64,000 bases of DNA from Candidatus Kaiserbacteria bacterium (GTDB lineage: Bacteria; Patescibacteriota; Minisyncoccia; Phycocordibacterales; JABMNX01): the NCBI GenBank assembly GCA_016186705.1, contig JACPLB010000002.1, positions 20,811 through 84,810 of the forward strand, given 5' to 3'. Below the pieces are notes generated by a model, which was not told where the DNA came from, searched no databases, and saw only the letters and a program-made list of their open reading frames with translations. The translations under genes and the position numbers were made by a program. Position 1 is the first letter of the stretch. Every line of letters starts with the position of its first letter. This document shows positions 4,959 to 30,785 of the stretch, piece by piece.

Positions 4959-6182
4959 CTAGGGCGCGCTCTTTAATATCCCGGAGACAATGTCTGTCTC
5001 TTTTGTAATTGACAAGCGGTTGTTGAGAAGAGTCACAAAAAGCGAGGCGATAGCCGCAATGAGAAAAGCGAATTTAATACTGAAGAAAAAGACTGTGACG
5101 CCGACAATGCCCAGAATAAGAACGCGTCCGAGATTGATGGATATCTCCTTGAGAACCGTGAATTCATCGATGTAATGCCCGTTATCGACCGCTTCGCTGT
5201 ATGTCGTCACGTCTATCGACATTTGATTGACTACCCTCCCAAGCCCGTGATAGGTGTCTACGATGAATATTTGAAACCCGGTCTCGATAAAAATTTTAAT
5301 GAACCATCCTGTTGCGTTGAGAATTGAGCCGATAGTAAGCGTTTTTCTTCTGCTCCATCGGTCCACCAAATCCCCTACCAGAAGACGGAGCATGATGACC
5401 GCAAAGATAGTCAATGAAGAAATCGCGCCGACGGTGAAATATTCTCCATTCAAAAGCAGAAAGATGAAGACGGGCCAGATGACGGCGGTTACGGCGGATT
5501 GAGCTCCGTCTCCCATGTACCCCACGAGAATGGAGCGATTCTGCGTACTGAAGAGTTTCCGGTACGTCTCCGTGTACGTGTAAGAGTAATGCTCATACTT
5601 ATCTCTGATAAAGAAAAGCGGAAAGACGGCAAAAATCAGGATGATGAGAGAGATAACAAACAAGTAATTGAACCCCGCAGCGATGATAATGCCTCCACCG
5701 ATAAGCGGCGTGACGACCGCGACGACTTCGGAAATGCTCAACAATATCGACATTTGCCTCCCTCTCGTCTTTTTGTCGGTAAAGGTCGCAAAGTCAACAT
5801 GATACGGCACCCAGTAGAGAACCTTGTACACCACTGACGCGAGCACAAGTCCGATCGGCGCGTAGAGAGGCGCGTAATCCCACAGGAGAAAAGGCAGAAT
5901 TGAGAGAAACGCAAAAGGCATCGCGTACATCATGAGTTTCTTCATGCCAACCTTGGATATCGCCATTGCGCCGAGAGGCGTAAAAATAATGCACAAAATG
6001 TATATCAAGGAGAGAAGCCCGATGACTTTTTCAAGCGACCCGTTGAATTTATTAAAAATAAAAATGATCTCAAAGATGCCGACGACTCCGAATCCGAGCT
6101 GTATTAAGAGCCGGTTAAGGTAGAGGGCGAGAATATCAAAAGAAAAATGGACCCCCTGATAGTCTTTGACGCTTAATTTCAT
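4959..6182 (-). CDS. MFS-type multi-TM transporter
   Basis: About 12 predicted hydrophobic helices. General MFS-like architecture. Confidence 0.65.
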   Translation of the reverse strand: MKLSVKDYQGVHFSFDILALYLNRLLIQLGFGVVGIFEIIFIFNKFNGSLEKVIGLLSLIYILCIIFTPLGAMAISKVGMKKLMMYAMPFAFLSILPFLLWDYAPLYAPIGLVLASVVYKVLYWVPYHVDFATFTDKKTRGRQMSILLSISEVVAVVTPLIGGGIIIAAGFNYLFVISLIILIFAVFPLFFIRDKYEHYSYTYTETYRKLFSTQNRSILVGYMGDGAQSAVTAVIWPVFIFLLLNGEYFTVGAISSLTIFAVIMLRLLVGDLVDRWSRRKTLTIGSILNATGWFIKIFIETGFQIFIVDTYHGLGRVVNQMSIDVTTYSEAVDNGHYIDEFTVLKEISINLGRVLILGIVGVTVFFFSIKFAFLIAAIASLFVTLLNNRLSITKETDIVSGILKSAP

Positions 6183-6269
6183 TGCTCTCTAGCGTAGCAT
6201 TTTCTGAACTAAAAACGGAGAAAAGTGGGTTGATATCTTTATGATAGTTAATCGTGAAGTCCAATCTAG

Positions 6270-6343
6270 TGCACGCACCAGGACTCGAACCTGGGACCTT
6301 CTCAACGTCAATGAGACGCTCTAGCCAACTGAGCTATGCGTGC
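6270..6343 (-). tRNA. tRNA-Val(GAC)
   Basis: The reverse complement folds as a cloverleaf with acceptor stem GCACGCA/TGCGTGC. The anticodon loop is TTGACGT. CCA is not encoded. Confidence 0.85.
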
Positions 6344-6459
6344 GCTCCGATTAGAGTGCACAAATTCTGCAAAAAGGTCAACGGAACTGGCGGGCTACCT
6401 CAAGCTACCTGTCCGACCCTGGAGGAGAACTCTGGTGAATCAAGCCCCGTAAGGCTATT

Positions 6460-7590
6460 CTAGCCCTTTTCCAAAGTTAAACCGAAGGTTCCCTGTGCGC
6501 CTTTTTTCAAGAGTTCTCTTTGTGACCTTTTAAACGCATTTTCGACAATATCCCAATATTGTTGAGAATTAACTTTCTCAAGATGCTCTTTTGGCCAATC
6601 GTTTCCATATGCATCCCATTTTAATTCCTTAAATTTCAAGCCATTTCCAAAATACTTTATCTTCGAGTACGTTTCTTTTCTAATAGAAACATTGTATGCA
6701 CTAGAAAACGTTACTGCTATATCATAAGTAAATTCATTATATCCCCAATAAGGTTCTCCAATATCACCATAAAGTATGGGATTGAAAACAAAGAAAAACA
6801 TTTGCAGTTTCTTGCCTCGGAATTTATAGACATCAAACTCACCTATAGTTGTAGACCACCCATAAAAATCATCGATATCAAAAAATCGCTCATTTAAATT
6901 TGCCATATTGCTCACAACTCCTATAAGATTAAAAACAAGCGATTTATCTTTTGAGTCATAGATGAAGAACCAATACTTATAACCCCTTAGTTCAATATCC
7001 GAAAGAATCTTAATTGGTCGTTTTTCTTTTGGATCATGCCGTTCAAATATTGATCTATCTCTTGGATTGAAATCTACTCGAAAATTTGCGCATTCCGCTA
7101 ATCCAGAAGGGCTCAACCCATAGTTTTTTGCTAAATATTCCCATTCGGTAATTTTACGAGGAGAAGGAGTATGTATTGTAAATGCCACTATCATTAAAAT
7201 CAAAATAACCGTTATATAAATTGCAAAGATTAGAAGTCCCGTATTATAGAAAATATAGGACAAAATATTTTCTTCACTAGGAATTGTGGCTAGAAACAAA
7301 AAGAAAGCCGCCAAACCCGTGGTTATTCCTCCCCAAACCAAAAAACGAATCGATTGTCTTATCTCTTGGTGTCTTAATTTATAGTCTTTTAGAATATCAG
7401 TAATTTGTTTTCTCTGTTCCTTCCTTTTGTTGTCACTTTTTTCTTCTAAAAATGATTTTGGTTTTATCAGTCTCCTTAGTCTTGCTCGAAACTCTCTTAA
7501 ATCTTTTAAGGATGGCACTATAAAAAGCGAGAATATGAAAGTATATAAGGCAAAGGTTGCGATTGTAAAAATAGGTGTATAAAGCTCCAT
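6460..7590 (-). CDS. Island gene A: membrane protein with 4 predicted TM helices and a ~220-aa aromatic-rich soluble C-terminal domain; no recognisable family
   Basis: AT-rich ORF, about 33% GC. The likely start is MELYTPIF; the track offers an alternative start at 7668. TM helices are followed by a W/Y/F-rich domain with no motif I recognise. Confidence 0.6.
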   Translation of the reverse strand: MELYTPIFTIATFALYTFIFSLFIVPSLKDLREFRARLRRLIKPKSFLEEKSDNKRKEQRKQITDILKDYKLRHQEIRQSIRFLVWGGITTGLAAFFLFLATIPSEENILSYIFYNTGLLIFAIYITVILILMIVAFTIHTPSPRKITEWEYLAKNYGLSPSGLAECANFRVDFNPRDRSIFERHDPKEKRPIKILSDIELRGYKYWFFIYDSKDKSLVFNLIGVVSNMANLNERFFDIDDFYGWSTTIGEFDVYKFRGKKLQMFFFVFNPILYGDIGEPYWGYNEFTYDIAVTFSSAYNVSIRKETYSKIKYFGNGLKFKELKWDAYGNDWPKEHLEKVNSQQYWDIVENAFKRSQRELLKKGAQGTFGLTLEKG

Positions 7591-7847
7591 AAACTTAATT
7601 AAGCACCTCGTGCTAGCTGTTAGATGCGGGGACGATTGCCGGAACTTTGAACCGAAAGCATGGCTCAAATTCGAGGATCTTGATAAAAGTATACAGAAAT
7701 TAAGGGCTATCTACAAAGTTCATCCAGAATGGTTTGAGGTACCAAAGCCTAAATCAAACAGAGGCAAGAGTGAAATTGATTATTCAGTATCTTGAGTAAT
7801 TGTTATGCCTCAATAGTTGACTCCTATACAGATTAAAGATTTTTATC

Positions 7848-9158
7848 TTAATCAATCTTAAAACCCTTCTTTTGCTGTTCTTTAAGAATTTTTTCGTATA
7901 TTCCACCTTTTCCATAAGGCACTCTTACGGGCATATCAATCTTGCATTCGATATTAGGTACTGTTCCCTTATGGGGAACTGGAATTTGAATATCGCCTTC
8001 TTCCATAAGAAGTTTTGCTAATTCAGCAACGTCATACTCTACAGTGCCAAGAGTTTCATCTTTTTTATCACCAAACATATGAATAATTACTTTGGGAATC
8101 TTACTTTTATCAAGATGCATGAGACAGCACTTCACGATATTAAGCATTTGATATTCATATTTGACTGATTCCTCTAGATGAACGATATCGTAAGCTTCTG
8201 CGGTGCCGAAAAATATTTGCTCATTTCTTCCGATGATTGGAGGATCGTATTTAAGTGATATTTCAAGTACTGTTCTATCATTATCTAATTTGAATTCTTT
8301 CAAAAGAAAACTGCGATTAGTCGCAAAGGACTCGGCTATTTCCTTGATTTCTCGAATTTTGTATACACGCTTGCTAACTATTTTTGCTTCAACGTCAGGA
8401 TTATTTTCCAAAAAGATTAGAAGTCCATTTCTTAAAATCCAGAGGTTAACTCTGCATGTTTGCAGAATGTCTCTTAGTTGTCTTTGCGTGAATTCATAGC
8501 GCTTCTTTTCTTTACCACTTTTATCATCAACCACCTTAAGGACAACCGTCTTATTATCAGTTGTTTCCCATCTATCGTGTCCGGCCCCAGCGTTACGTAT
8601 ATGGTTATCAAAGCCAGAGACTAGGTCCGGAAAATTACCATTCGGTAATGAAAAAGAGGTATTTTTTATCGTTTGAAATTTTTCTCCCGCTGAGACATCA
8701 ACAAACATCTCTGCATCTTTAACAGCATGAGTTTTGCCGTACTTTTTACATAGATAAAAGTATGGGGTCGTTCCATACAACCTAAAGTCACTCTCAAAAA
8801 GAGTTTTATATAAGCTCAACTGACAAGAGAAAATTGTTTCAAGCTCAGAACCTTTCAAAGCACTATAAAGAGAATCTTCGGCCTGTTCCGTCCGCAGACC
8901 GGAATCATTTGCAGTATCGATTATTGTACTAACAACTTGAAGGAATTCTGCCTCATTTTCTTTATATAATTGTTCACACAGTTCCTCGATAAATTTTGTT
9001 GCTTTGAGATCTTTCTGCTGAACAGAATGTCTCCAACCGAGCCAGCCTTGCTGAAAGAAATACCTTACATTCTTTGGTCGTTTGTTTGGATGCTTTAAAA
9101 GTGGTTGGATATAGACTTCAAAATATCTACTTTCTGCCGCTAAGTTTGAATCAAGCAT
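7848..9158 (-). CDS. Island gene B: 436-aa hypothetical protein with a candidate HEPN-like Rx5H motif
   Basis: AT-rich ORF. Contains FDNHIRNAGAGHDRWE, i.e. R-N-x4-H, which is compatible with the HEPN Rx4-6H signature. The start ATG overlaps the upstream gene's TGA by 8 nt. Confidence 0.6.
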   Translation of the reverse strand: MLDSNLAAESRYFEVYIQPLLKHPNKRPKNVRYFFQQGWLGWRHSVQQKDLKATKFIEELCEQLYKENEAEFLQVVSTIIDTANDSGLRTEQAEDSLYSALKGSELETIFSCQLSLYKTLFESDFRLYGTTPYFYLCKKYGKTHAVKDAEMFVDVSAGEKFQTIKNTSFSLPNGNFPDLVSGFDNHIRNAGAGHDRWETTDNKTVVLKVVDDKSGKEKKRYEFTQRQLRDILQTCRVNLWILRNGLLIFLENNPDVEAKIVSKRVYKIREIKEIAESFATNRSFLLKEFKLDNDRTVLEISLKYDPPIIGRNEQIFFGTAEAYDIVHLEESVKYEYQMLNIVKCCLMHLDKSKIPKVIIHMFGDKKDETLGTVEYDVAELAKLLMEEGDIQIPVPHKGTVPNIECKIDMPVRVPYGKGGIYEKILKEQQKKGFKID

Positions 9159-9867
9159 TGTTCTTTACTCTATACTCTAAAAGTAAGTACGAATTTTCGA
9201 GTGGCCTTGCCTGGATAAATTCAAGGGCCTTTATTTTTTTGAGTTCTCCCGAAGTATGTAACGATTCCCCATCCATTAAAGTCGATGTATTTTTGCCACC
9301 AATGAGAGCGGGAGCAACTACCAACCAAACACGATCAATTAAACCTTCTCGCACCAAGGTGGTATTTAAAGTTCCACCTGATTGAATTGTGAGTTTGTCA
9401 GCCCCGAAATCTTGTTTCAGTATCGTAAACAAATCATTGAAATCTACAACTTCTCCATATTCAAAAACGTAGAGGTTGTCAAAATCATTTTTGAGAGATA
9501 CTGCTGGATGATTTTTGTTTGTTGTAGCAATGATAAGATTCTTTGCTTTCTTCGCAAGATATGAGATTCCTTGAGCGGTGAGGTGTGGCTCGTTATCGAT
9601 AACCACAAAACTTACTGGTAATTTCTTCGGTTCATCTTTTTTCTCATTCATTCCAATCTTCGCAAAGACTCTTCCCGTGTTAAGGGAAAACAGGTCAGTT
9701 TGTTGCTCTAGATCGTAGTATTGTTGTAAACCTTCTTTGATACCTGAAATTTTAGGGAAATCCTTATCCACATCTAAAACATCGCTATCGCCAGTCGAGA
9801 TTTTGCCATCGACAGACATAAGCATGAATAGTGTTGTGTCCGGTCTGTTTTTATCTTTATTTTCCAT
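9151..9867 (-). CDS. Island gene C: RibD C-terminal domain / dihydrofolate-reductase-like family protein
   Basis: LFMLMSVDGKIS at the N-terminus, and GLIDRVWLVVAPALIGG ... YLLLEYRV at the C-terminus. These are typical of pfam RibD_C / YwjB-like reductases. Confidence 0.75.
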   Translation of the reverse strand: MENKDKNRPDTTLFMLMSVDGKISTGDSDVLDVDKDFPKISGIKEGLQQYYDLEQQTDLFSLNTGRVFAKIGMNEKKDEPKKLPVSFVVIDNEPHLTAQGISYLAKKAKNLIIATTNKNHPAVSLKNDFDNLYVFEYGEVVDFNDLFTILKQDFGADKLTIQSGGTLNTTLVREGLIDRVWLVVAPALIGGKNTSTLMDGESLHTSGELKKIKALEFIQARPLENSYLLLEYRVKNNA

Positions 9868-9886
9868 AGGTTCAAAGTTGCCAATC

Positions 9887-9976
9887 TGGCGGAGAGGGAG
9901 AGATTCGAACTCTCGATGCGGTTTCCCGCATGCCGGTTTTCGAAACCGGTGCCTTCAACCACTCAGCCACCTCTCC
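9887..9976 (-). tRNA. tRNA-Ser(CGA)
   Basis: Reverse complement is GGAGAGGTGGCTGAGTGGTTGAAGGCACCGGTTTCGAAAACCGG...CTCTCCGCCA. It has a long variable arm and encodes CCA. It closely resembles E. coli tRNA-Ser. Confidence 0.9.
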
Positions 9977-10215: not shown

Positions 10216-10263
10216 TAAAAAGAAAGAGCCCAGTGAAGGGCCCTCAAGTGTCGCTTCTTGAAT

Positions 10264-11061
10264 CTAGGAGGGCGACTGAACTTTCTGCCGTGTGGTTTTT
10301 GCTTTGAGGTCTTCCATGATGGAATTGTATTGAGTTTCCGCGTCTTCTTCCAGCCGACCTTTTATTTCCTTCATGATCGAGGCGAATTCGTCCCGTGCGC
10401 GCCGCCATGTCTCATTCCAGAGGTCATGCCCGAAGAATTCTTGTATTTTCTCCAGGCGCTCTGGAGTGATTTTAGTCCGACCGTCGAGCAAGGCGCTGAT
10501 ATTGTTAGAAGAAAGACGATATGCAAGGTCTCTCTTTTTCTTCGTTCGCGCCTTGCCTTCGAAAAGAAGGTGGAGCGTGAGAATCGTCCTTTTCTTGATT
10601 ATGTCGAACCCGTTGAACCTTCGCAGGTCTCGGTGAGTAGAAAAAATTCGAGATCCTTTACATATTCTTTTTCGCCTGACAGTGCGTCGTGGCACTTGAG
10701 AGGTGCCCATGGAAGAATTGGGCTTGGAAACCTTCCTTGTGTCCGGCATTGGCACTACCCGCGTCTCGATTTTCCGTGAAGGCACTGCCTTGAAATTTTC
10801 ATGCACGATACGCTCGCCGTTGATGTCTGATTTCCCGAGCAGGAAGTCTGTCGCAACCTCAAGTGTCCAGGCAAAACTAGCGCATTCAACAATCGTCAAA
10901 CCGCCGTGCCCTCGCTTGAGATTGCTGTACCGGTCGCTGAGGACCTCTATGAGGTTTTTCCCACATCTCTTTGCCGCTTCTTCGAGACGAGGCCATACAT
11001 CCCTTGCGGAGACGGCCCACATCCCTTCCCTCATTTCCTTCTCCAAGGATTTATGGGCCAT
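10264..11061 (-). CDS. Hypothetical protein with a C-terminal XRE-like helix-turn-helix
   Basis: The C-terminus LAYRLSSNNISALLDGRTKITPERLEKIQEFFG is Cro/C1-like. I moved the start to MAHKSLEKEM because the longer track ORF would overlap tsaD. Confidence 0.45.
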   Translation of the reverse strand: MAHKSLEKEMREGMWAVSARDVWPRLEEAAKRCGKNLIEVLSDRYSNLKRGHGGLTIVECASFAWTLEVATDFLLGKSDINGERIVHENFKAVPSRKIETRVVPMPDTRKVSKPNSSMGTSQVPRRTVRRKRICKGSRIFSTHRDLRRFNGFDIIKKRTILTLHLLFEGKARTKKKRDLAYRLSSNNISALLDGRTKITPERLEKIQEFFGHDLWNETWRRARDEFASIMKEIKGRLEEDAETQYNSIMEDLKAKTTRQKVQSPS

Positions 11062-11196
11062 CGGACTACTCCTTGTCTCCCAAAATGTTGAAGAACATTC
11101 CCGCCATGCGGGAAGAACTTGAAAGACTATAGTACGAACCGCTCCGTGCCGCAAGACTTGAAAAAATGCCGGATATAGCGAAGGATAGAGGTACCT

Positions 11197-12420
11197 ATGC
11201 GTATTCTTGCAATTGAAACGAGTTGTGACGAAACGGCAGTGAGCTTGATTGAAGCAAAAGGACCTTTCGGCGCTATGTCTTTTACTATTCTCGGGAACTC
11301 TCTCCTCTCCCAGATTGAGCTTCATAAAGAATTCGGAGGCGTGTATCCCTCACTCGCAAAACGTGAGCACTCAAAAAATCTCGTTCCGCTTCTCCAAAAC
11401 ACTCTTTTTGAAGCGAGGATGTTTGAACAGACGCTCTCCCCGCTCTCCAAGAACGAGATCGGCACATTAAAGGAGCTTCTCTCGCGCGAGCCGGAGCTTT
11501 TTGTGCTTTTGATAGCGTTTCTCTCAAACGTGAAGAAGCCTGATGTAGATGTAATCGCGGTAACGCATGGACCGGGGCTTGAGCCGACGCTCTGGGTTGG
11601 CATTAATTTCGCAAAAGCTCTCTCGTCCGTCTGGAATATTCCTCTTATGCCGATTAACCACATGGAAGGGCACATTGTTTCAGCCGCTCTGAAACAGCTT
11701 TTAGAAAACAGCCCGAAACCCGCAGAAAAAATAAAGGGGGTCAAAACAATACAGCACTACGCGCTTGAAGATATTGATTTTCCCGCGCTTGCGCTTCTCA
11801 TCTCCGGCGGCCACACCCAGCTTGTCCTTGTACGAAAATGGGGAGCATACGAGATTGTGGGCGAGACGCGGGACGACGCCGTTGGTGAAGCGTTTGACAA
11901 GGTTGCCCGCATGCTTGAACTTCCCTATCCCGGAGGCCCTGAAATTTCAAAGCTTGCGGAATCGGCGCGGGAGGAAAATCTTGAACATCCGTACTCACTT
12001 CCTCGTCCGATGATAGACATAAATGATTTCAATTTTTCATTCTCCGGACTTAAAACAGCGGCTCTCTACCTCATACGCAAAAAAGGGACGCTTAACGAGA
12101 CGGATAAAAAGCAGATTGCGCGGGAATTTGAGAACGCAGTCGCCGATGTGCTCCTTGTGAAAACAAAACGCGCGATTGACACGTACGGCATACGAACGCT
12201 TCTCGTCGGCGGAGGAGTCTCTGCAAACAAACATGTCCGCTACACGCTTGAAACGCACCTCAAGAGGACGCACCTGGACATTGAGACATACATCCCGAGG
12301 AAGGAGTTGACGGGCGACAACGCTATCATGATAGCGGTCGCGGCATATCTCCGGAGGATGCTGAAAAAGGGAACGCCAAGCATAAAGACCATTGTCGCGC
12401 AAGGCAACGCGAGGATATAA
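11197..12420 (+). CDS. tsaD: tRNA N6-adenosine threonylcarbamoyltransferase TsaD/Kae1
   Basis: MRILAIETSCDETAVSL at the N-terminus and an INHMEGH metal-binding motif. Confidence 0.9.
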   Translation: MRILAIETSCDETAVSLIEAKGPFGAMSFTILGNSLLSQIELHKEFGGVYPSLAKREHSKNLVPLLQNTLFEARMFEQTLSPLSKNEIGTLKELLSREPELFVLLIAFLSNVKKPDVDVIAVTHGPGLEPTLWVGINFAKALSSVWNIPLMPINHMEGHIVSAALKQLLENSPKPAEKIKGVKTIQHYALEDIDFPALALLISGGHTQLVLVRKWGAYEIVGETRDDAVGEAFDKVARMLELPYPGGPEISKLAESAREENLEHPYSLPRPMIDINDFNFSFSGLKTAALYLIRKKGTLNETDKKQIAREFENAVADVLLVKTKRAIDTYGIRTLLVGGGVSANKHVRYTLETHLKRTHLDIETYIPRKELTGDNAIMIAVAAYLRRMLKKGTPSIKTIVAQGNARI

Positions 12421-16380: not shown

Positions 16381-16484
16381 GGCGTCAGCTCACTAATTCG
16401 CCCTACAACTTAATTAATTTTTGTCCTGATTACTAAGTGTTACGCGCTATAGGCTATAGAATGGAATATTTCTTTAATTTTATA

Positions 16485-16880
16485 TCAGGAATTTTCTTTA
16501 TTGCTAAGCATAAGTTCAAACACATATACCTTTCCTTGTTGTGAATTATTGATCTCTTTTGGAATATATTTATTAACAAAATTTTTATAGTCGACATCGA
16601 ACTTAACCCACAAAGGTTGTGCATTTAAATGGGCACCGCCTCGTTCTGCAAATTTAACCTTTATAGCACCTTCTTCTTTTAAAGAAAGGAATTTCATCCC
16701 AACGGCGTTACGGTTTTTATCAAAAAGTAACTTAACTGCCGCTGTGTTTTCAGCGGTTAGGTTGTATTTTCGAGTAAAACCAGCACTTAATCCTAAGCCG
16801 CCAGTTTCTACAAGACTTACCAATGGGGTAAATCTTCCCCCAGTAACCTCTAGCTCCTCAAAATTATAATCTGTTTCCAT
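16485..16880 (-). CDS. Hypothetical protein, 131 aa, in an AT-rich islet
   Basis: Intact ORF in a low-GC segment next to the 3' end of tRNA-Phe. No recognisable motif. Confidence 0.45.
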   Translation of the reverse strand: METDYNFEELEVTGGRFTPLVSLVETGGLGLSAGFTRKYNLTAENTAAVKLLFDKNRNAVGMKFLSLKEEGAIKVKFAERGGAHLNAQPLWVKFDVDYKNFVNKYIPKEINNSQQGKVYVFELMLSNKENS

Positions 16881-17196
16881 CCCTGTATCCTAACAAAGTA
16901 GACTTTGATTGTCAATAGGTATGTAAAAGGTGTGAGAAGTTGAGTAATAGTTTGACAAAATTTGTTTCTAGTGTTCTTTATGTGATATTCCGAGTTTTGC
17001 ACTTGCCACTTTCTCTCCAGTATGCATATAATACATACAGCAAAAGGGTCACGTGACCACGCGACCCCAATGCTCTTAGAAGCGGTGATGGAACTGAGAT
17101 CGGTGGTCACCGACGTTGAACGGTTCCAAAACCCCCTCGTTTGTTCAGTGTACAGTGACCTACGAGGGTAATCAACCCCGAAAGGGGAAAAGTAAA

Positions 17197-17373
17197 ATGA
17201 CAACCTTTGAAATTTATAAGGATGTCGCTGGATACTTTAGGTGGAGGTTGGTTGCGGCAAATGGAGAAAAAGTTGCAGCTAGTGAGGCTTACGTCTCAAA
17301 ACAAGGCGCAACAACCTCTGCAGAAAGAGTAAAGTATTGGGCGAGTGTAGCTCATATTGTTGCTCTCGTCTAA
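17197..17373 (+). CDS. DUF1508 (YegP-like, UPF0339) small protein
   Basis: MTTFEIYKDVAGYFRWRLVAANGEKVAASEAYVSKQGA fits the YegP repeat. AAAGGGGAAAAG Shine-Dalgarno lies 8 nt upstream. A terminator hairpin follows. Confidence 0.7.
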   Translation: MTTFEIYKDVAGYFRWRLVAANGEKVAASEAYVSKQGATTSAERVKYWASVAHIVALV

Positions 17374-17387
17374 ACACCAGACACAAA

Positions 17388-17415
17388 AAGACGCTGCGAG
17401 CGTCTTTTTGTGTCT
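17388..17415 (+). terminator. Rho-independent terminator
   Basis: AAAGACGCTGCGAGCGTCTTT stem followed by TTGTGT. Confidence 0.55.
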
Positions 17416-17509: not shown

Positions 17510-17586
17510 TGGTGCTTGGGGGCGGACTCGAACCGCCGACCCTCTGCTCTTCAGGCAGATGCTCTAACCAACTGAGCTACCCAAGC
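17510..17586 (-). tRNA. tRNA-Phe(GAA)
   Basis: Reverse complement is GCTTGGGTAGCTCAGTTGGTTAGAGCATCTGCCTGAAGAGCAGAGGGTCGGCGGTTCGAGTCCGCCCCCAAGCACCA. CCA is encoded. Confidence 0.9.
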
Positions 17587-30562: not shown

Positions 30563-30700
30563 TTCCACCTCCTGCGGAAAAGCGTTACACCTGTAGTAAT
30601 GTTAACATAGAACTTAGAGAAAGTCAAGGTTTCGGCTAATCTTCCGAGGTCGCACCATCGCCCTCGGTTTCAAGGTTGGTCCGATACAAAAAACTTCGTG

Positions 30701-30785
30701 CGGAGGCGGTGAGATTCGAACTCACGATACCTTTCGGTATGCCGCCTTTCCAAGGCGGTGGAATAAACCACTATCCGACGCCTCC
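30701..30785 (-). tRNA. tRNA-Ser(GGA)
   Basis: Reverse complement is GGAGGCGTCGGATAGTGGTTTATTCCACCGCCTTGGAAAGGCGG...GAGTTCGAATCTCACCGCCTCCG, with a long variable arm. Confidence 0.8.

Follow-up and report, generated by a model that had tools for sequence, protein, structure and literature searches.

The stretch of DNA analyzed here (the window) comprises 64,000 nucleotides (nt) from the genome of a Candidatus Kaiserbacteria bacterium belonging to the candidate phyla radiation (CPR) and harbors a small AT-rich islet located between the genes for tRNA-Ser(CGA) and tRNA-Val(GAC). The G+C content (GC) of positions 6460-9886 was 0.358 as compared to 0.487 ± 0.017 (minimum 0.429) in segments of equal length elsewhere, corresponding to a z score of -7.7. 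Determined over 400 nt at a time, GC was 0.32-0.40 at ~6400-9900 versus ~0.45-0.55 in the flanks, which is the deepest dip of the 64-kb window. A preliminary description of this region had proposed a compositionally foreign island directly 3' of a tRNA gene. Both the foreign composition and the position could be confirmed, the islet beginning 19 nt past tRNA-Ser(CGA); the dip, however, reaches a level of about 0.36 and not 33%.

The proximal border of the islet is the 3' end of tRNA-Ser(CGA) (9887..9976, minus strand; called by ARAGORN, Rfam 58 bits). A leader of 19 nt (9868..9886, minus) is followed by three genes, all on the same (minus) strand, the shared strand having been described before: g1 (9867..9151), encoding a RibD_C/DHFR-family reductase of 238 amino acids (aa), g2 (9158..7848), encoding a 436-aa protein of an unannotated family, and g3 (7590..6460), encoding a 376-aa orphan. 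As also described before, g1 and g2 overlap by 8 nt (9151-9158), and g2 and g3 are separated by 257 nt (7591-7847) in which no terminator-like site was found. At the distal border, host-level GC resumes in the spacer that separates g3 from the 5' end of tRNA-Val (6344..6459, minus), followed by tRNA-Val(GAC) itself (6269..6343, minus; ARAGORN; Rfam 69.7 bits). Apart from tRNAs, Rfam detected nothing. Farther out, the islet is flanked by an MFS gene (4959-6182) and by tsaD (11197-12420). The position 6270 given earlier for this tRNA agrees with Rfam, but is one base off from the ARAGORN call at 6269. The heptamer AGATTGG is shared just past tRNA-Val (6262-6268) and tRNA-Ser(CGA) (9880-9886) and absent after the other eight tRNAs of the window; this may be chance.

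We viewed the neighborhoods of about 18 distinct loci of the g2 family, two g3 loci and two g1 loci; comparison loci are numbered with the prefix L, and L014-L018 represent the window's own strain. A tblastn comparison of g1, g2 and g3 with every fetched locus revealed no two of them together outside the window's own strain, and no relative of g1 or g3 was present at any g2-family locus whose flanks could be read. In total, relatives of one gene stand apart from the other two at about 25 other loci. The three-gene operon or defense module proposed in the preliminary description thus lacks a conserved neighborhood, and there is no comparative support for the pairing of a HEPN RNase with a membrane effector. 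When the window is aligned with other g2 contexts, DNA homology sets in precisely at the g2 ATG (9158); it ends at 7626 for g2 relatives of 90-95% identity and near the stop codon for more distant ones. Furthermore, g1 homologs end with ..VKN and a stop codon, while g1 of the window reads ..VKNNA, its natural stop having been overwritten by the g2 block. Because homology starts at the g2 ATG, the 8-nt overlap of g1 and g2 is a recombination junction and no evidence of an ancient operon. Copies of g2 that are 90-95% identical occupy quite different neighborhoods, and the homologs of each gene keep their low GC whatever the host locus (0.35-0.41 for g2 homologs). The region is a mosaic, and the g2 block is mobile.

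The interval downstream of g2 contains a 3' tail (7626..7847, minus) which moves together with this gene. It was found with 75-81% nucleotide identity in L008-L013, L019, and L029, and breaks off after ..ATCGTC.CCGC, at the same base (7626) before four different downstream genes. Judging from these alignments, the 257-nt gap is mostly a co-travelling tail of g2 and not an empty spacer. Within the tail, a frame of 55 codons convergent to g2 (7628..7795, plus strand) showed conservation at the amino-acid level with ratios of nonsynonymous to synonymous substitutions (dN/dS) of 0.17-0.37 in four contexts. This frame lacks a start codon in both L019 and L029, is decaying in L029, and matched nothing in Pfam or PHROGs; in our reading, what is left here is the 3' part of a convergent gene that was lost. 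The missing starts, the decay in L029 and the lack of a family match led us to reject a complete small gene or antitoxin. A remnant of a serine recombinase was rejected as well, since five large serine recombinases (LSRs) searched by tblastn matched nothing in the window and the frame is unrelated to LSR C-termini. The end of the tail (..CCGC/CA) was also considered as a pseudo-tRNA attachment (att) site, for which local alignment against shuffled sequences gave no support. In independent Logan assemblies of the same population, contigs end at 7670-7709 (L015, L016, L018) or start at 9898-9916 (L014-L017). These breaks, lying inside the g2 tail and inside tRNA-Ser, fall near the homology ends and hint at several contexts per sample.

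The product of g1 matched the Pfam family RibD_C with E = 1.5e-19 and 71 bits at a cut-off of 24.1, over profile positions 4-190 of 197. The earlier assignment as RibD_C/DHFR-like is hence upheld above the gathering score. Its nearest PDB chains are the archaeal-type pyrimidine reductases 2azn, 5xv5, and 6p8c (E 1e-10 to 1e-13), and together with the full-length RibD_C match this homology places g1 in the family of RibD C-terminal (pyrimidine reductase) and DHFR proteins. It differs from the RibD/RibG equivalogs of NCBIfam in that it remained far below their cut-offs (TIGR00227, 63 of 150 bits; TIGR01508, 59.5 of 186; TIGR00326, 21 of 156) and is a stand-alone gene. CPR bacteria mostly lack riboflavin synthesis. 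We found 7538 homologs of g1 with 67-81% identity, spread over many CPR classes. At the other loci viewed, g1 homologs have a GC of 0.39-0.41; that of g1 itself is 0.381. The 19-nt leader (CCGCCAGAT..GAACCTATGGAAAA..) recurs with the first codons of g1 at other loci: it is also found upstream of RibD_C in L025, where the g1 homolog lies ~260 nt past tRNA-Ser, and after tRNA-Ser(TGA) in L019. The stretch upstream of RibD_C in L025 was also searched for a displaced tRNA 3' end, without a significant result. The contexts of the g1 homologs in L025 and L026 differ and are unrelated; g1 is an independent cargo gene widespread in CPR bacteria.

The g3 protein comprises 376 aa when translated from ATG and 402 aa if an upstream TTG is used. 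Hydrophobic segments at residues 5-28, 81-103, and 109-144 predict an N-terminal part with 3-4 transmembrane (TM) helices, followed by a beta-rich, aromatic-rich C-terminal domain. The preliminary description of a 4-TM protein with an aromatic-rich soluble domain therefore holds for the soluble part, which contains 19% aromatic residues, while the number of TM helices is 3-4. The gene is rare: just seven homologs were found. At the other loci viewed, g3 homologs have a GC of 0.31-0.33. Two of the seven follow tRNA-Ser by 108 nt (L024) and 459 nt (L022), and both sit in contexts unrelated to the window. Like g1, g3 is an independent cargo gene.

Homologs of g2 are located 39-43 nt past tRNA-Ser(GGA) or tRNA-Ser(GCT) in L001 and L004, 61 nt past tRNA-Gln in L032 and 130 nt past tRNA-Arg in L005; in L019, g2 lies inside a 4-kb islet beginning at tRNA-Ser(TGA). 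Since homologs of all three genes follow tRNA-Ser, the 3' flank of serine tRNAs is a place where cargo lands repeatedly in these bacteria; in the window, three such cargoes are stacked at one tRNA-Ser. As an internal control, the genes downstream of the other tRNA-Ser of this genome, tRNA-Ser(GGA) at 30700-30785, have host GC. A trailer TTT(A/T)(G/T)TATCGG(A/T) was observed after tRNA-Ser at 30650-30700 of the window (the unoccupied GGA gene), at L001:7963-8000 and at L004:3760-3801, and also at L020:50-101 in a tRNA-3'-like stretch without a tRNA call. This trailer resembles a native flank of tRNA-Ser and would thus mark the joint between g2 element and host. Direct repeats of the tRNA-Ser 3' end, for which the preliminary description had suggested a search, were looked for in exact, ungapped, and gapped mode and did not rise above shuffled controls; likewise, no significant att repeats were detected around the elements carrying g2 and an LSR in L001, L004, and L005, or in L019. 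Serine recombinases need just very short shared cores, and missing att repeats are for this reason weak evidence against an origin by LSR. In the tycheposon model of Prochlorococcus, transient recombinase-bearing elements leave cargo or remnants beside tRNA genes (bioRxiv 10.1101/2020.12.28.424599). The islet fits this model: cargo lies directly beside a full-length tRNA gene, remnants stay, and serine tRNAs are among the targets. It differs in that the recombinase linked to g2 is an LSR in CPR bacteria, no partial-tRNA repeats were found, and the islet consists of just 3.4 kb with three genes.

The second gene belongs to a family with no entry in the databases searched. No match to g2 was obtained in Pfam, NCBIfam, PADLOC, PHROGs or the PDB sequences, and a PDB profile search gave no hits; a literature search on DUF7229 and on HEPN defense in Patescibacteria returned nothing relevant. 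We found 26 close relatives, and a profile search extended the family to 97 representatives of clusters formed at 50%, which with few exceptions are 415-460 aa long and match over their full length. All sources named so far are CPR/Patescibacteria. Ten distant members carried no functional name in their source, the single name given being "hypothetical protein". In the Parcubacteria locus L021 (7612-7855), a decayed copy is found: of the g2 homolog no more than the initial ~81 codons are left, the best segment being 90% identical. A distant relative (44%) at L002:7526-10219 is flanked by overlapping open reading frames (ORFs) of 160 and 284 aa without Pfam match, and a tyrosine integrase lies on either side of the group; the family might thus also exist in another form consisting of several genes.

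Conservation was scored on 73 diverse members, the mean column identity of their alignment being 27%. The RNAGAGH motif pointed out in the preliminary description was located at residues 188-194 (codons 8577..8597, minus strand). R188 is the sole invariant residue of the family, and Y117, E122, K160, N189, and H194 are conserved in at least 90% of the members. By this alignment, RNxxxxH is the signature and most conserved feature of the family. It has the form R-x4-6-H with a polar residue after the arginine, as used to recognize HEPN sites. Values of dN/dS between 0.04 and 0.15 indicate that g2 is under strong purifying selection. A confident AlphaFold model of g2 (predicted local distance difference test (pLDDT) score 86, predicted template modeling (pTM) score 0.78) is helical over residues 1-280, a putatively HEPN-like N-terminal domain in which the motif is immediately followed by a beta insertion (197-224); alpha/beta domains make up the C-terminal part. 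A Foldseek search of this model against the PDB gave nothing usable. Of the earlier view of g2 as HEPN-like, the conserved motif is confirmed, while a match to a HEPN profile is missing. This absence also sets g2 apart from known HEPN proteins such as the HepT/MNT toxins, AbiD/F, AbiJ, the C-terminal domain of AbiA, and Csm6/Csx1. Further differences are its 436-aa single-gene architecture with additional N-terminal helices, two C-terminal ferredoxin-like alpha/beta domains resembling the C-terminal domain of CDF transporters, RimP, and BolA, a glycine-rich motif with x5 spacing and a beta insertion behind it, and the lack of a visible MNT or antitoxin partner. A HEPN fold of the N-terminal domain is plausible, yet unproven, and we consider the chances for and against it to be even.

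In six loci (L001, L003, L004, L005, L007, and L035; g2 68-90% identical to the window copy), an LSR gene directly follows g2 in tail-to-tail orientation. The distance between both stop codons is -4 to +80 nt as measured in L001-L007, and the recombinases comprise the domains Resolvase, Recombinase, and Zn_ribbon_recom. In these elements, g2 is more conserved (71-85% identity) than its LSR (56-68%); L003 and L007 additionally carry terminase-like and ParB-methylase genes. Relatives of the LSR with 45-72% identity were found in 33 viral contigs of IMG/VR (L040-L072), which display the same layout: the LSR is followed by a variable convergent cargo gene encoding 143-1629 aa. A tRNA gene lies within ~3 kb in 11 of these 33 loci (four Ser, three Gln, and one each for Asp, Trp, Glu, and Lys). 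When ten cargo proteins of this slot were scanned, at least six belonged to restriction-modification (RM) or PADLOC families (raw count). The ten were a full-length PDC-S53 (E = 0), a type III restriction enzyme, a type IIG restriction-methylase, a mad8/HerA-like ATPase, a type I specificity subunit (HsdS), a RelA_SpoT protein with a weak match to PDC-S33, a ResIII+SNF2 helicase identified by Pfam, a recombinase fragment, and two unknowns. Because known and candidate defense genes fill the equivalent slots in IMG/VR, the slot of g2 is a defense-gene hotspot. L059, L061, and L064 share a RelA_SpoT protein of 204 aa (>92% identity), and one of similar size occupies the slot of L042. No relatives of g1 and g3 were found in the IMG/VR viral contigs.

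Prophage and satellite hotspots of the P2/P4 type harbor defense genes adjacent to a recombinase. Serine recombinases have furthermore been reported as markers of defense genes (PMC13552941). The g2 locus resembles both in having a variable slot next to an integrase with interchangeable defense genes; it differs from the marker hotspots in that the recombinase is large instead of small, the hosts are CPR bacteria, and the copy in the window has lost its recombinase. With these differences, the locus fits the idea of serine recombinases marking defense loci.

Defense-type genes are also neighbors of g2 itself. RM genes were found near g2 in L003, L019, L029, L034, and L036 (raw counts), so that g2 homologs have both RM genes and recombinases in their vicinity. 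In L019 and L029, the g2 homolog is located beside an MvaI/BcnI endonuclease and a fusion of LexA, S24, and methylase domains without a recombinase. The start of the same LexA-S24-methylase gene is found upstream of the 95% identical relatives in L009-L012, and a 54-nt upstream stretch in L008 shows the same intergenic sequence only. In L036, a g2 with 42% identity lies beside a LexA-S24-methylase, and no separate restriction endonuclease is seen on this short contig. Locus L034 carries an Eco57I/MmeI-type enzyme, a methyltransferase (MTase), next to g2, and N6_N4 MTases occur near g2 in L003. MTases fused to a full LexA module (LexA_DNA_bind plus Peptidase_S24) are encoded at L019:6068-7969, L029:733-2634, L036:136-1611, and also L001:13252-14760. 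Such fusions lie divergently beside g2 homologs in two lineages of g2 that are only distantly related; in L019, the intergenic region shared by both genes measures ~75 nt. The combination of an RM methylase with a self-cleaving LexA repressor domain suggests a control responding to damage or infection.

We explain these observations by a mosaic islet of three independent cargoes seeded at tRNA-Ser(CGA) which has lost its recombinase, g2 most likely being a stand-alone anti-phage effector; the probability of this explanation is estimated at about 0.6. In this Candidatus Kaiserbacteria genome, a small additive islet would have grown from the 3' end of tRNA-Ser(CGA) by independent acquisition of g1, g2, and g3, packed end to end; at least one of the three would have been delivered by a recombinase that was lost later. 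As a stand-alone anti-phage or abortive-infection effector, g2 may sense infection by its C-terminal alpha/beta domains, whereupon the HEPN-type R-N-x4-H site of the N-terminal domain would cut RNA. By its location g2 is a credible single-gene defense candidate, the only one in the islet. Several points weigh against this explanation. The window contains neither a recombinase nor, according to the tblastn search with five related LSRs, a remnant of one, and it contains no att repeat, so that acquisition is deduced solely from the mosaic structure. No HEPN, Abi or other defense profile of Pfam or PADLOC matches g2; a single one of the 73 family members gave a weak match to the Pfam family HEPN_pEK499_p136 (E = 0.037). 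The x5 spacing of the motif, its two glycines, and the low pLDDT at residues 192-194 are atypical for HEPN, as is the beta insertion of ~30 residues at a place where a HEPN motif would directly enter a helix. Finally, no relative of g2 was found in IMG/VR contigs, and it is solely the genomic location which would assign g2 to defense.

The reading of g1, g2, and g3 as one horizontally acquired defense operon of a DHFR-like protein, a HEPN RNase, and a membrane effector could draw on their shared strand, the tight packing with an 8-nt overlap, the lack of a visible terminator in the 257-nt gap, and the AT-richness of all three genes. However, no other locus harbors two of the three, the overlap is a recombination junction, the gap carries the remnant of a convergent gene, and PADLOC-DB v2 returned no match. 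In the searches of Pfam and PADLOC-DB v2 (E up to 1), no HEPN or defense profile matched g1, g2 or g3, in agreement with the earlier statement that no named system is recognizable. The operon is largely refuted and in our view exceedingly improbable; the mosaic structure removes the false lead of a new three-gene system around a DHFR-like protein. It is also very unlikely that the region is native, that is, vertically inherited low-GC accessory DNA without recent transfer whose adjacency to a tRNA gene is coincidental. Although the window has no integrase or att repeat, and the leader from tRNA-Ser to g1 is also kept at two further CPR loci and might hence reflect an arrangement of some age, the z score of -7.7, the sharp homology breakpoints at 9158 and 7626, the 90-95% identical g2 copies in quite different neighborhoods, and the host-GC genes downstream of the other tRNA-Ser(GGA) all argue for an import.

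Two further alternatives accept the mosaic and concern the role of g2. It might serve the mobile element itself as an addiction toxin, a superinfection-exclusion or lysogeny gene or an accessory factor of the LSR, as suggested by its tight convergent linkage to an LSR in six loci, the terminase-like and ParB-MTase genes in the elements of L003 and L007, and the frequency of this LSR family in viral contigs; the g2 of the window would then be the leftover of a decayed prophage-like element. We consider this reading improbable: g2 is intact and under purifying selection without a recombinase in the window and in L019, L029, L020, L034, L036, and L037, it is more conserved than the LSR, the other occupants of the slot are host-type defense genes, and viral contigs yielded no relative of g2. 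Superinfection exclusion would itself be a form of defense, and to this extent the alternative overlaps with an anti-phage effector. Alternatively, g2 may not be a HEPN RNase, the R-N-x4-H residues forming part of another site, for instance of a DNA-directed nuclease or effector partnering with the LexA-fused MTases. This would agree with the missing HEPN profile match, the atypical context of the motif, the divergent LexA-S24-MTase neighbors in two lineages (L019, L029, and L008-12 with 90-95% identity, and L036 with 42%), and the absence of a separate restriction endonuclease on the short contig of L036; we regard it as rather unlikely. The stand-alone effector encoded in a defense hotspot remains our preferred explanation for g2.

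Two other parts of the window were noticed. Next to tRNA-Phe (17510-17586), a second and milder low-GC patch (0.39) at 16400-17400 contains a 131-aa ORF without Pfam match (16485-16880, minus) and an 85-aa DUF1508 protein (17116-17373, plus); it may be another small tRNA-adjacent islet. Between tRNA-Glu and tsaD, long ORFs overlap on both strands (10264-11325, minus; 10258-10779, plus), the former, of 353 aa, having no match in Pfam.

The islet itself is ordinary, being a tRNA-seeded patch of imported genes. Of use are a well-conserved protein family, entirely unannotated and made up of about 100 clusters (50% identity), in which a candidate active site stands out clearly, and a genomic address, from a tRNA gene to one LSR family, which CPR bacteria and their mobile elements appear to use for exchanging defense genes. 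As a tentative and somewhat doubtful extension, g2 may found a new family of stand-alone CPR immune effectors in which a highly divergent HEPN-like nuclease is combined with C-terminal sensors, resides in the slot between tRNA and LSR, and in some lineages shares a promoter with a LexA-MTase. If this were true, the shared divergent promoter would tie g2 expression to a damage or infection signal, and the tRNA-to-LSR slot would be a general, minable defense hotspot for little-studied bacteria. CPR bacteria lie beyond the usual E. coli-centered screens, and a recombinase-anchored hotspot would thus offer a practical route to their immune genes, with g2 as the first case.

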